From the IMG/VR virus record IMGVR_UViG_3300014208_000023, positions 364,321-428,320 of that record: 64,000 nt of DNA; one strand, written 5' to 3'. Below, in pieces: positions 12,691 through 29,539 of this stretch. The DNA comes from a virus. Its lineage: Duplodnaviria; Caudoviricetes. Position 1 is the first letter of the stretch; every line of letters begins with the position of its first letter. The notes beneath the pieces are model-generated. The model was given only the letters and a program-made list of their open reading frames with translations. It did no database searches and had not been told where the DNA came from. A program made the position numbers and the translations under genes.

Positions 12691-13029
12691 TCACTTCTTT
12701 TTAGGAGTGAGCCACGTCGCTACTTTATGGAGAGCCCCGAGACCGGCCCTCTTTGCCTTATTGACCTTGAGATGCATTGAGAGACTTTGGGCAGTAGCAA
12801 ACTGCTTTACTTTCCCAGCTTCTTCTTCTACCTTGAGACGGATTTTTGGAAAAGCCTTCGCCTCATCAGATTCAGTAGTATCGGTGGCAACCTCTTTTTC
12901 TGAGGTTGCCTCTGATACTTCTTTTGTTACATCAGTGTCCGACTTTTCTGAAGGACCAAAAAGACTTTTTGCCTTTTTGGTTGATTCAGCCGGCTTAGAC
13001 TTCGGCTCTTTATTCTCAGCTTTGACCAT
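12691..13029 (-). CDS. Lys/Glu-rich hypothetical protein
   Basis: Likely start MVKAENK at 13029, overlapping upstream stop. Confidence 0.6.
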   Translation of the reverse strand: MVKAENKEPKSKPAESTKKAKSLFGPSEKSDTDVTKEVSEATSEKEVATDTTESDEAKAFPKIRLKVEEEAGKVKQFATAQSLSMHLKVNKAKRAGLGALHKVATWLTPKKK

Positions 13030-13912
13030 GACGGGCCACCTTCGTTTCTTCTTTCTCCAGATGAGCCTCCAAATCAGAGAGGTCGGCTTCAACTTCAATC
13101 TCCACTTCTTCAGAAGTGCTTTTATGCCCCTCCGTAGTCTGGCCGGACTCGGCCTCTGCGGGAAGAGAAGCAAGAGCGCTAGTGAGAACGGGAAGGAACT
13201 GCTTGAAAGCGGCTTCTACGATCTCATTTCCAACGGTAGTCATTCCGCTAATACGGAACTCTTCCGCAAGGCGCTTGACACGAGGATCATCCTTTAGGCC
13301 CGGAACATAGTTGAGGCCATGTCCAGCAATGGTGCCTAGAAGTGCCGAGCCCCATTCGGTATCTAGGAATGCAGCAATACCGGCGACATGCTCGTTGCTA
13401 GCTCCCTTTGATTTGAGCATTTCAACAATGGCGCTACGAAGGCCATTGTTGATCTGACGAGCGCCGACGCGGTAAGCCGCCTTGGTTGCGTCTGCCTTAA
13501 TCATTCCCATTAGCGAACTGGTATCAGTAGATGACATTTTAGCGTCTTTCTGTGCGGGTTTCGATGCTCGGTTTCGACGAGCCTGTAGAATTGTCTTCAC
13601 AACTGAAGCTGCATTTTCAGCATCTTCTTTCGCGTCACTCTCAAGAAGGTCTTCCATGTTCTTGAGAACTTCTTCTTCTCCTTCGAGATCCGTTTCTAGC
13701 TCATGGAGCTGATAGCTGCAAAGGCTTCCGTCAGGCCACTTGACCCAAATTCGATCCTTCGGCGTGTGGGTGCAATTATTACGATCACAAGTCTTACCTC
13801 CGCTTCCAGTGGCCTTCACGCAAGTATTGAACTTAACGACACCTTCGCGTCGGTTCTCGTTTTTGCTGCCGTATGATCGGACTATCTCGCCAATTGAAAA
13901 TGTTGTAGCCAT
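13016..13912 (-). CDS. AAYRV/EFRxSGM-domain family protein A
   Basis: DATKAAYRVGARQI...LDTEWG...LAEEFRISGMTTVGN, acidic tail; SH3-like N-terminus. Confidence 0.8.
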   Translation of the reverse strand: MATTFSIGEIVRSYGSKNENRREGVVKFNTCVKATGSGGKTCDRNNCTHTPKDRIWVKWPDGSLCSYQLHELETDLEGEEEVLKNMEDLLESDAKEDAENAASVVKTILQARRNRASKPAQKDAKMSSTDTSSLMGMIKADATKAAYRVGARQINNGLRSAIVEMLKSKGASNEHVAGIAAFLDTEWGSALLGTIAGHGLNYVPGLKDDPRVKRLAEEFRISGMTTVGNEIVEAAFKQFLPVLTSALASLPAEAESGQTTEGHKSTSEEVEIEVEADLSDLEAHLEKEETKVARHGQS

Positions 13913-13958
13913 TTGTGTTCCTTAACTTTCTTTATTTGATTTTAAGAGCAATCTAAAC

Positions 13959-26700: not shown

Positions 26701-26746
26701 TTGAGCGCTTTCTAAAAACTCTAGAATCGTATGATATATCTATACG

Positions 26747-27364
26747 ATGTTCTTCGTTTATCTTATAAAGAATTTTGTTAATGGAAAATTATATGTTGGC
26801 AAGACTAACGACATTAAAATCCGATGGAGACAGCATAAAAAAATTGCTGCTGGTGGCAAGGCCAAATACCCAAAAGAGTATAGCTACATACATTCGGCTA
26901 TTTCTAAATATGGAACAGAAAATTTCAAAATATCTATTTTATATAGATACGATAATGAAAATGAAGCTTTGGAAGATGAAATTTATCACATAGCTCGTTT
27001 AAAAAACGAAGGTTACGAACTATATAATCTTACGGATGGTGGGGATGGATCTTCCGGATATAAATTTTCTGAAGAAAGCAAACGAAAAATGTCCATAACT
27101 CATATTGGCATGAGACATACTGAAGAGTCTAAATGCAAAATGTCCTTAGCTCAAAAGGGCAATACCAATAATTTGGGCAAAAAACATTCGGACGAAACTA
27201 AAAAGAAAATGTCTGAATGGCAGATTGGCAAAACGCTTTCCATTGAAACGAAGAAAAAAATATCTTCAGCACATTTGGGAATGAAAGCTTCTGAAGCGAC
27301 CAAACAAAAAATGTCTCTTGCGAAGATTGGTAAATCCAATAAATCATCTTCCGGCAATTTTTGA
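26747..27364 (+). CDS. free-standing GIY-YIG homing endonuclease with NUMOD3-like repeats
   Basis: FFVYLIKN...LYVGKT, YNLTDGGDG, HSDETKKKMS repeats; paralog of 25849-26430. Confidence 0.9.
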   Translation: MFFVYLIKNFVNGKLYVGKTNDIKIRWRQHKKIAAGGKAKYPKEYSYIHSAISKYGTENFKISILYRYDNENEALEDEIYHIARLKNEGYELYNLTDGGDGSSGYKFSEESKRKMSITHIGMRHTEESKCKMSLAQKGNTNNLGKKHSDETKKKMSEWQIGKTLSIETKKKISSAHLGMKASEATKQKMSLAKIGKSNKSSSGNF

Positions 27365-29539
27365 TTGCTTTTGTTCTTCTTCTACAGAAAGAAAGTCTTC
27401 TAGACCAGAAGAATTACTTTCATCTTCGACTCTAATCTTTAGATCTTGAGTAGATGTCATGGCCTCCAAAGCAGATTTAAAAATCACTTCCATAAGTTCA
27501 TTGCCAGCGATCGTCATACCGCTAACCCTAAACTCCTTGGAAAGAGCTAGGAGTCGAAGCATATTAGCGCTTGCATCTGGACTATCTACTCCCGGAATTT
27601 GAGGAATGGCAATTCCCAGAGTGATAGCCATAGCGGCCTTGCCATATTCAGTTCCAAGAATTTCAGATAGAGCATTAGCCTTTGTAGCGCTACCATCCTT
27701 ATTCCTTAGAGAATTTACGATTGCTCCATGAGTAACTGTAAGGGCTTGCTTCGCAACGATTCTATAACCGGCCTTTTTAAGGTCGGCTTTTAGCGGAGCA
27801 TACTTATTGATGGTGAGTCCAGCGGTAGCATGTTCAGGAAACACTGCTGGCTTTGAAATTGCCGAGTTACCCTTAACACCCAACCTACGAGTATGTCCCG
27901 GAGACATTGCCCAATATCTTGAGTCTAGATTTGAATCCAAACTTGACGAATCTAGAAAAGATGAGTCCTGATAACCTTCCCATCCAAATTTTAGCTTGTC
28001 CTTAAGACGAAGGACTGGGCCGTGTTCTGTCGCTCCTACTACAATGCCCCGGCGAAGCTTGTGTGCATTTTGCACAGAAATTACGTCATCGTCATCGACG
28101 GAGACGCCAAACTCCAACTCTTCTCCTAGCCTATATCCAAGCTTGGCTAGATTGTTCCTGACAACATTGTCCTTATAAAGGAGATTGGCTTTCTTGATAT
28201 TTTCCTTCTTGAAGGACCAGAACTTCTTATTCTTACCACAATAAGTCGAATGAATAAGTTTGAAATATTCTGGGCCATATGCCTCACTCCAAGAGCCAAC
28301 AATGGAAGTGGATGGCTCAACCATTACGGAGCCGTTGAGATAGCCGGCTACTTTACCATTGCGCACGTATTTGGCGCCAACCGGATTTGTTGATGTAGGA
28401 TTGCCCAAGGCATCGCAAGCGTAACTTACGTCATCTCCAACTCTCAACCCAAGAGAACGAAGATCGCTAAAAATAGCGGAATCTTTCTTGTCGGCTTCCA
28501 TAGCCGCTGCTTTCTTGACGGCCTCCATAGCCTCTGCTTTCTTGGCTGCCTCAAGAGACAGCTTGTCCTTATGCATCTTGTATTCTGTAGCAGTTTTCAT
28601 CGCATGCTTGGTTAGACAGAATGCCATAGACTCGGTATCTTTAAACCGAGAGTGTGAGTGATCTCTCTGCAACGGCTTATAGTTAATACCTGGGGCTTTA
28701 ATGTGGCCAGCGGTATCAGTATATGCGACTAGAGGGTAATTTCCATCGTGACCGATTACGATTAGTTCTCGGTCGGGATTTGGCGCACCAGACCAATAAA
28801 CAAGGCCTCCAACTACTAGACCTTCTTTAGTGAGTCTTTCAGTAATTGCCTTGTCTTTTTCGGCCTGGGTAGCGACGGCCGGAGTAGTTGCAACTGGTAC
28901 GATTTTTGTGGCTGCAACTTCGGCTACACGTTTCGCTTCAGCTACACGTTTCGCTTCGACGCAAGTATCGAAAACAGAAGCAGAAAACTCAATATATCTG
29001 CCTGATTGAGTAAAAGACGAGTGCAGTTTTGATGAACCGTGAGATTGGGTGGCGCAATAATATCTCTCTTTCGTTGGGCCATCAATAAGAAGAACCGGAT
29101 TACCACGGCAAACTCCGGCGACGTAACCGACAATTCCATAGGAAGATTGGGAAACAATCCTTTGCCCAAGAGAAAGGCCAATTTCCTTTAGCTCCTTTAC
29201 AATTCTGGCGTCTTCCGTATCAGTAACTTTTACCGTATCTTTTGGATAAAGAGACCAAATTGCTTTTGAAGCAATATCCTTATGAAAGTCATAATGAACA
29301 TTACTTTCCGTTTGGGTACGAGAGGTTGGGAACCCTGAAAAAAGGACTAGTGCAAAGTCGTGATCACGATCATGACCGACAACAACTCCAACCGAGGACA
29401 TCCCAACAGCTTTGATCTTATCTCCAACCTTAAGGCCGGAGACTTTCAGTCGAGAATTGATGGCGTCTCCCTGAAGTCGCAATGCAAGCGACTTATCTGC
29501 ATCATTCACGGTGGTGATGGTTTCTTCCGGAGTCTTCAC
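27344..29539 (-). CDS. AAYRV-domain family protein E with five tandem SH3-like modules
   Basis: Modules GLKVGD, GLSLGQ, GLVVGG, GLRVGD, GYRLGE, then DLKKAGYRIV...SKEFRVSGMTIAGN. Confidence 0.8.
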   Translation of the reverse strand: MKTPEETITTVNDADKSLALRLQGDAINSRLKVSGLKVGDKIKAVGMSSVGVVVGHDRDHDFALVLFSGFPTSRTQTESNVHYDFHKDIASKAIWSLYPKDTVKVTDTEDARIVKELKEIGLSLGQRIVSQSSYGIVGYVAGVCRGNPVLLIDGPTKERYYCATQSHGSSKLHSSFTQSGRYIEFSASVFDTCVEAKRVAEAKRVAEVAATKIVPVATTPAVATQAEKDKAITERLTKEGLVVGGLVYWSGAPNPDRELIVIGHDGNYPLVAYTDTAGHIKAPGINYKPLQRDHSHSRFKDTESMAFCLTKHAMKTATEYKMHKDKLSLEAAKKAEAMEAVKKAAAMEADKKDSAIFSDLRSLGLRVGDDVSYACDALGNPTSTNPVGAKYVRNGKVAGYLNGSVMVEPSTSIVGSWSEAYGPEYFKLIHSTYCGKNKKFWSFKKENIKKANLLYKDNVVRNNLAKLGYRLGEELEFGVSVDDDDVISVQNAHKLRRGIVVGATEHGPVLRLKDKLKFGWEGYQDSSFLDSSSLDSNLDSRYWAMSPGHTRRLGVKGNSAISKPAVFPEHATAGLTINKYAPLKADLKKAGYRIVAKQALTVTHGAIVNSLRNKDGSATKANALSEILGTEYGKAAMAITLGIAIPQIPGVDSPDASANMLRLLALSKEFRVSGMTIAGNELMEVIFKSALEAMTSTQDLKIRVEDESNSSGLEDFLSVEEEQKQSKIAGR

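Follow-up and report, generated by a model that had tools for sequence, protein, structure and literature searches.

The last 64 kb of an uncultured megaphage genome (IMG/VR virus record IMGVR_UViG_3300014208_000023, a complete sequence of 428,320 bp with terminal repeats), spanning positions 364,321-428,320 of the record and referred to here as the window, carries five open reading frames (ORFs), P0001 to P0005, whose predicted proteins have a C-terminal domain in common. All five lie on the minus strand, at the coordinates given in an earlier reading of the bare sequence (the original prediction), which had described them as a five-member family with variable N-termini. When compared by BLASTP with the 707 predicted proteins of the phage itself, P0001, P0003, P0004, and P0005 match one another with expectation (E) values of 1e-12 to 1e-42, and do so in the C-terminal domain only; P0002 is divergent, with an E value of 8e-6 to P0001 and of 3.6e-9 to a hidden Markov model (HMM) built without P0002. 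The C-terminal similarity is far above chance, and the motifs by which the family had first been described, D-x3-A(A/G)YR(V/I), L(D/G)(T/S)E-x-G, G-x-G(L/I), a Pro, and EFR(I/V)(S/N)GM-x3-GN, are found in the alignments. The five proteins do form a family, but its limit of five did not stand. Two further strong members are encoded outside the window, on the minus strand at genome positions 333,945-335,891 and 316,526-318,832 (open frames of 648 and 768 codons; 638 and 636 amino acids (aa) from the first ATG), and a 155-aa protein encoded at genome positions 15,119-15,586 (minus strand) matches an HMM of 148 sequences over helices 1-3 of the domain only (E = 2.8e-6); to judge from its sequence, this protein appears to be a truncated or very divergent eighth member. 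The genome thus holds seven clear members and one weak one. The member genes sit in a small-gene, tRNA-rich, non-structural region, five of the seven lying away from the large-gene block at 120-320 kb.

In P0001 (13016-13912; 298 aa), a head of ~75 aa is joined by an acidic helical linker to the conserved domain (residues ~134-251, nucleotides (nt) 13160-13513), which is followed by an acidic tail (nt 13019-13159); the orthologue group of P0001 includes at least eight proteins, 65-82% identical over their full length, in which the tail itself is conserved. P0002 (14294-14587; 97 aa) is the domain on its own, in a divergent copy without helix 2, and ends in a short Lys/Glu tail; its orthologue is 77% identical in the sister phage, in which the entire local gene order is kept, all five members included. 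P0003 (14699-15325; 208 aa) opens with a short N-terminal part of 56 aa; its conserved domain spans residues ~57-178 (nt 14792-15157), and its tail is acidic. P0004 (17041-18075; 344 aa) begins with a 189-aa head that has no recognizable relative; the conserved domain occupies residues 190-311 (nt 17143-17508), and the tail after it contains an RIVE motif and a poly-Glu run and is basic at its end. P0005 (27344-29539; 731 aa) starts with five repeats of ~100 aa each, which have the opening motif (K)D.AI...L...GL.VG in common; after these repeats come the conserved domain, at residues ~585-696 (nt 27452-27787), and a tail that is acidic. The P0005 orthologue of the sister phage has 622 aa (~110 aa fewer), and its head is only 31% identical.

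The common domain had been taken to be helical and ~110 aa long; its helical nature is borne out, and its size is better given as ~120 aa, arranged in four helices. An AlphaFold2 model of P0004 residues 189-344, made with a 148-sequence alignment, has a predicted local distance difference test score (pLDDT) of 88 overall and of >93 over helices 2-40, 45-56, 58-74, and 82-121, and shows a short helical hairpin flanked by two helices of ~40 residues, with ~35 disordered residues after the last helix. Positions Ala17, Tyr19, Arg20, Gln25, Gly60, Gly69, Pro76, Glu90, Arg92, Gly100, Asn101, and Pro113 are near-invariant. Helix 1 is long, amphipathic, and basic (mean net charge +2.9), and helix 3, of 17 residues, is uncharged and Gly-rich. 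The tail that follows is predicted to be disordered, is 30-45 residues long, and is acidic as first described, with a mean net charge of -4.4 over ~39 residues in 148 homologues. It has a regular order: an R-(V/I/L) dipeptide 5-8 residues past a conserved Leu-Pro (112 of 147 tails vs. 23 in shuffled sequences), then the acidic run, and then a net-basic stretch in the last eight residues; 38% of the proteins end in Ala.

The original prediction named a membrane-inserting anchor and a pore-forming effector among its possible readings of this domain. In a role of this kind (superinfection exclusion, a pore-forming effector, or control of lysis timing), helices 3 and 4, both Gly-rich and hydrophobic, would be inserted in the inner membrane or rest on its surface; the uncharged helix 3 would suit it, the basic amphipathic helix 1 could bind acidic lipids, 20 of the 148 homologues just attain a hydrophobicity of 1.6 in a 19-aa Kyte-Doolittle window, and phage holins are found among the weak Foldseek matches of the domain. 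The holin matches are at noise level, however (E > 0.3), and a transmembrane-grade segment (threshold ~1.6 over 19 aa, without charges) is absent from all five window proteins: their best windows reach 1.17-1.48 with charged residues included (family median, 1.34), vs. 2.35 on the same scale for the membrane segments of a neighboring S8 protease used as a control. No signal peptide or N-terminal anchor is evident in these proteins, and the predicted fold is a compact four-helix bundle. The anchor and pore-former proposals are not supported by these data, and membrane action in general is considered very improbable.

What precedes the domain is variable, as originally claimed: the N-terminal parts of the window proteins have no matches to one another, and their heads have no Pfam match. 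A Pfam scan of 119 homologue N-terminal parts gave sporadic matches only (CusF, SH3_12, the MscS β-domain, MazE, a helicase 1B domain, and MORN_2/DUF6745), with no recurring enzyme or toxin domains, and the heads would on this showing be binding-type modules, not enzymes. SH3-like heads, among them one of five SH3-like repeats, had been proposed. In the full-length model of P0001 (pLDDT 50), the head shows five short β-strands at low confidence; the five repeats of P0005 are confirmed, and a search of the ESM Atlas with the P0005 head gave no usable match (template modeling (TM) score ≤0.22). An SH3-like fold of the heads is thus plausible but unproven. The P0001 head contains a C-x10-C-x4-C-x-H pattern (nt 13700-13830, residues ~28-70) that is invariant in all orthologues and probably represents a zinc knuckle set into the barrel. 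In the member at 333,945-335,891, the head is made up of MORN-type "HREDGPA" repeats, which are present also in stand-alone paralogues. A second expanded family of this phage is built from such MORN-type repeats (HREDGPA...Y(W/Y)..G; weak DUF6745/MORN_2 matches) and is encoded at window positions 18890-19432 (minus strand) and at 3.2-4.3 kb and 367.9-369.6 kb of the genome.

Comparison with the sister phage indicates that the heads evolve faster than the constant module, because they are only 31-47% identical in three of the four head-bearing proteins, whereas the domains are 55-81% and the neighboring enzymes 74-89% identical. Polymorphic toxin and effector families are likewise multi-copy and modular, with one terminal module kept and the other exchanged and fast-evolving; in contrast to these, the megaphage family has its conserved part at the C-terminus (a reversed polarity) and heads without toxin or enzyme domains, and no immunity-like partner or secretion signal was seen.

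The domain found no match in the PDB by sequence; by fold, the best PDB matches (Foldseek E of 0.69; VIA-align Z of 7.6) are within noise for helical bundles, and a search of the ESM Atlas by shape gave TM scores ≤0.41. These results bear on the proposal that the family forms a self-assembling hub, in which the domains of the paralogues would co-assemble as a hetero-oligomer, filament, or lattice (a replication factory, compartment, or cytoskeletal scaffold) that displays the heads, with head-less copies as spacers. Several co-resident paralogues and stand-alone domains per genome are what such an assembly would need, binding-type heads would suit it, and the long paired helices, with invariant Gly at two positions and GxxxG-like spacing, favor helix-helix packing. 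The model is nonetheless a closed monomeric bundle at very high confidence, no filament or lattice former was matched above noise, and there is no positive sign of self-association, on which a homodimer prediction of the domain (score 0.00) is evidence neither way; co-assembly is regarded as distinctly unlikely.

The modular design is widespread. A profile of the seven clear members, searched against 1.84 billion representative proteins, matched 1,350 clusters (defined at 50% identity) at E ≤1e-3, of which 754 also reached E ≤1e-10 and 166 reached E ≤1e-30. The domain is C-terminal in all 150 of the matches listed, whose proteins range from 105 to 3,226 aa, stand-alone domain proteins of 105-170 aa being common among the matches listed; the combination of a conserved module with swappable N-termini that was first inferred from the window recurs in these 150 proteins and in related huge phages. 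Carrier contigs include sequences of 431, 424, 412, 126, and 97 kb. Distant huge-phage contigs that have other genes in common with this phage (25-54% identity) encode groups of three members in 22 kb and of two in 24 kb, and the members in these distant relatives are embedded among runs of small genes without assigned function. The family had not been recognized in the original prediction, and the curated libraries agree: none of the seven proteins was credibly matched in Pfam, PHROGs, NCBIfam, or PADLOC, sub-threshold matches such as those to DUF937, MotA_ExbB, and AbiEi being discarded as noise. A tblastn search of 50,697 GenBank phage records with the P0004 domain found no match, and pattern-based scans of IMG/VR and GTDB genomes with the same domain found no confirmed relative. 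Two family members of a closely related phage, P0155 and P0162, are present in a EukProt protist-culture transcriptome assembly; genes of this kind are therefore transcribed, and their presence there implies activity of a related megaphage in the bacteria of the protist culture.

A remote link connects the domain to a protein of a classical phage. In a Foldseek search of viral models, a true family member ranked first and was followed by uncharacterized proteins of the T5-like phages My1, PSTCR5, Stubb, phi 3, and AAS21 (probability ~1.0, E of 3e-3 to 0.1, 14-19% identity), which are orthologues of My1_019 and T5.011 by length and position; the matched lengths are those of the DUF7566 orthologues found in My1, AAS21, and the Proteus Novosibvirus type (320, 316, and 397 aa, respectively). 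T5.011 (336 aa) is encoded with its own promoter on the first-step-transfer (pre-early) DNA of T5 and defines Pfam DUF7566 (PF24450; PHROGs 4263 and 16673; Demerecviridae), and in ~500 T5-like phages conservation is confined to its last ~110 residues. No paper mentioning DUF7566 or describing the huge-phage family was found in the literature. Profile-profile comparison (hhalign) of the family with the T5.011 domain gave E values of 5e-4 and 8e-4, and the two families find each other by rank: the top three of the 707 megaphage proteins with a T5.011-domain HMM are family members, and the top three of 278 T5-like ORFs with the family HMM are T5.011 orthologues. In a larger test, 22 family members ranked above every one of the 699 decoys, and 43 of the 50 highest-ranking proteins belonged to the family, mostly aligned in register within the domain.

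T5.011 resembles the megaphage proteins in having a conserved C-terminal helical domain of ~110 aa behind a variable N-terminal part and in the order of its motifs, (A/G)-(Y/G)-R-(V/I)...Q-x-T, (L/I)-D-T-x-x-G-x-x-(V/I)-(S/A), (Y/F)-A-P, and F-(R/N/D)-(V/I)-x-(G/E)-M. Each is encoded in a non-structural part, made up of small genes, of a large virulent phage genome, and neither is functionally assigned; they differ in copy number, T5.011 being single-copy and the megaphage having seven or eight. Remote homology of the domain to the T5.011 C-terminus is considered probable, at a level well short of certainty. T5.011 is among the few pre-early genes with a toxic effect on Escherichia coli when expressed alone (PMC8201957). 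Its expression causes slightly elongated cells and uneven 4′,6-diamidino-2-phenylindole (DAPI) staining, read as disturbed nucleoid organization and segregation; the gene is dispensable in the laboratory and its product "resists functional predictions" (bioRxiv 10.64898/2026.04.02.716235). In the same study, the nucleoid phenotype belongs to gene 011 and the membrane-damage phenotype to gene 013 (bioRxiv 10.64898/2026.04.02.716235), a division that also speaks against the membrane as the site of action of the megaphage proteins. As the sole probable relative studied by experiment, T5.011 points instead to an early, host-directed function in the cytoplasm that affects the nucleoid.

The link to T5.011 and the position of the genes also bear on a structural role, in which the C-terminal module would dock onto the capsid or scaffold and bring varied cargo (internal or ejected proteins) into the very large phage head, or would anchor surface display modules, the tail perhaps being removed on maturation. 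A constant terminal module on variable cargo fits a targeting signal, as do a multi-copy family with sizes up to 3,226 aa and a conserved short motif in the tail. Paralogous internal-head protein families occur in giant phages, and possible models are the internal proteins of T4, the inner body of phiKZ, and the C-terminal domain of T4 Hoc on the capsid surface. T4 Hoc, the cargo-loading peptides of encapsulins, and the capsid-targeting sequences of T4 are all terminal modules that dock proteins to HK97-fold shells; they are like the megaphage module in being constant docking elements on variable passengers, but no similarity to it in sequence or fold was found. With the domain model as query, neither Foldseek nor VIA-align placed any capsid, scaffold, or decoration protein above the noise level. 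A cleavage-type pattern, (V/I/L)-x-E, shows no enrichment in the tails (105 of 147 vs. 91 in shuffled sequences), R[VIL].E is found in only 41 of the 147, and a Pfam search, run without a positive control, did not find a T4-type (S77) prohead protease (PF03420); a T4-type cleavage site in the tail was rejected as unsupported, given the lack of enrichment. T5.011, the probable relative, is expressed from pre-early DNA and is, to our knowledge, not a known T5 virion protein, and five of the seven megaphage genes lie in the small-gene region, not the large-gene block. Genomic position and the T5.011 link favor an intracellular role over shell docking, and a virion-associated role is held to be unlikely.

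Local sequence signals were found around P0004. A σ70-like promoter match (TTGACA-17-TATCTT; 18095-18123, minus strand; 10 of 12 positions, a consensus match only) lies ~20 nt upstream of the P0004 start, and terminator-like hairpins on the same strand are located just upstream of this promoter match (18289-18315; 11-bp stem) and downstream of P0004 and a small ORF (16782-16807; 11-bp stem, 8 G-C pairs). On sequence grounds, the promoter match and the hairpin at 16782-16807 possibly bracket a separate transcription unit.

Taken together, the small-gene, tRNA-rich setting, the promoter-like site and hairpins at P0004, the lack of membrane segments, the binding-type heads, and the tie to T5.011 argue for paralogous, soluble, cytoplasmic host-takeover adaptors in which fast-evolving binding heads are carried on a common helical module, a reading to which a probability of roughly 40% is assigned. 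The adaptors would be made by the megaphage inside the infected cell, where the conserved module would engage one common, conserved cellular structure, which by analogy with T5.011 may be nucleoid-associated. The variable heads (small β-rich modules, repeat arrays, and MORN-type repeats) would bring different partners or set specificity, their quick divergence possibly resulting from host pressure, and the stand-alone domain copies would act as head-less versions. The early timing of expression, the target in the cell, and what the tail does are inferred, not observed.

Several points weigh against this reading. Evidence for a promoter comes from one consensus match, no RNA sequencing run was listed as containing this stretch of the megaphage, and the promoter scan as a whole found 41 sites vs. 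32.8 ± 4.8 in shuffled sequences, with no clear enrichment. Any single comparison with T5.011 is weak (hhalign probability of 25-31%, HMM E values of 0.005-0.3), and a common helical, Ala/Gly-rich composition could inflate the rank tests. The PF24450 model, which has a gathering score of 27 bits and scores T5.011, My1_019, and the Proteus orthologue at 328-380 bits, found no match in the whole genome at E ≤10, and DUF7566 was not listed in a Pfam scan of the five window proteins at E ≤1; because the curated model gives no match, the family is not a member of DUF7566. T5.011 ends in a short ...EE, without the 30-45-residue acidic tail and the R-(V/I/L) motif, and toxicity and the nucleoid phenotype are known for T5.011 alone and may not belong to the shared domain. 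No conserved neighbor gene accompanies the family in distant relatives.

The genes that surround the members in the window are of several kinds (positions are those of the window). Directly downstream of P0001, at 10256-12652 (minus strand), is the gene for a 798-aa ClpB/ClpC-like double AAA+ protein (Clp_N, AAA_lid_9, AAA_2, and ClpB_D2-small), which the sister phage encodes in a syntenic position at 83% identity; by eye, the middle domain of this protein is shortened and a ClpP-docking loop is not obvious. A dedicated pairing of the family with this ClpB-like protein was rejected, since the neighbor is syntenic in the sister phage only and not in distant relatives. The S8 protease (19561-21285, minus strand; 574 aa, Peptidase_S8) is a subtilase whose N-terminus resembles that of a lipoprotein and whose long C-terminal region is hydrophobic and multi-pass, and at 89% identity in the sister phage it is unusually conserved for the region. 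Genes for a DOPA 4,5-dioxygenase-family protein (21743-22132), a secreted-looking PLD-type nuclease (23914-24432), and a SpoU-type RNA methyltransferase (25188-25814), all on the minus strand, have 74-84% identity in the sister phage. The genes without assigned function at 15647-16549 and 24728-25186 (minus strand), which lie between or near members, are only 35-42% identical to their sister-phage orthologues; because these values are far below those of the neighboring enzymes, the whole neighborhood can be said to hold fast-evolving genes. Two GIY-YIG and NUMOD3-type homing endonuclease-like genes, at 25831-26430 and 26747-27364, are on the plus strand among minus-strand genes; the second shares 21 nt with the 3′ end of P0005, and a 43%-identical endonuclease homologue, annotated as GIY-YIG, adjoins a family member in a distant phage.

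Huge phages give much of their genomes to genes without assigned function, and a family of more than 1,300 clusters, with several copies per genome and proteins of up to 3,226 aa, is absent from Pfam, PHROGs, and NCBIfam. This family is probably a remote, expanded branch of a superfamily that includes the C-terminal domain of T5.011. Through its probable distant tie to T5.011, the family acquires a stand-in that is open to experiment in a classical E. coli phage, and T5.011 in turn gains a defined conserved domain to dissect. If that domain acts on the nucleoid, it would constitute a new and widespread host-takeover module; if it is instead a docking or assembly element, it would show how very large phages organize their accessory protein sets. 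A more far-reaching version of the adaptor proposal, which we regard as an improbable long shot, is that the module is a previously unrecognized phage-specific hub domain, ranging from T5 to 400-kb megaphages, that docks on one conserved bacterial structure (candidates being the nucleoid or the segregation machinery); up to eight adaptors per genome would then carry interchangeable heads for different partners, and the tail, with its R-V motif, acidic run, and basic end, would be an autoinhibitory or turnover signal that times activity. Were this the case, one mechanism would lie behind both the long-unexplained toxicity of T5.011 and a large block of huge-phage "dark matter."

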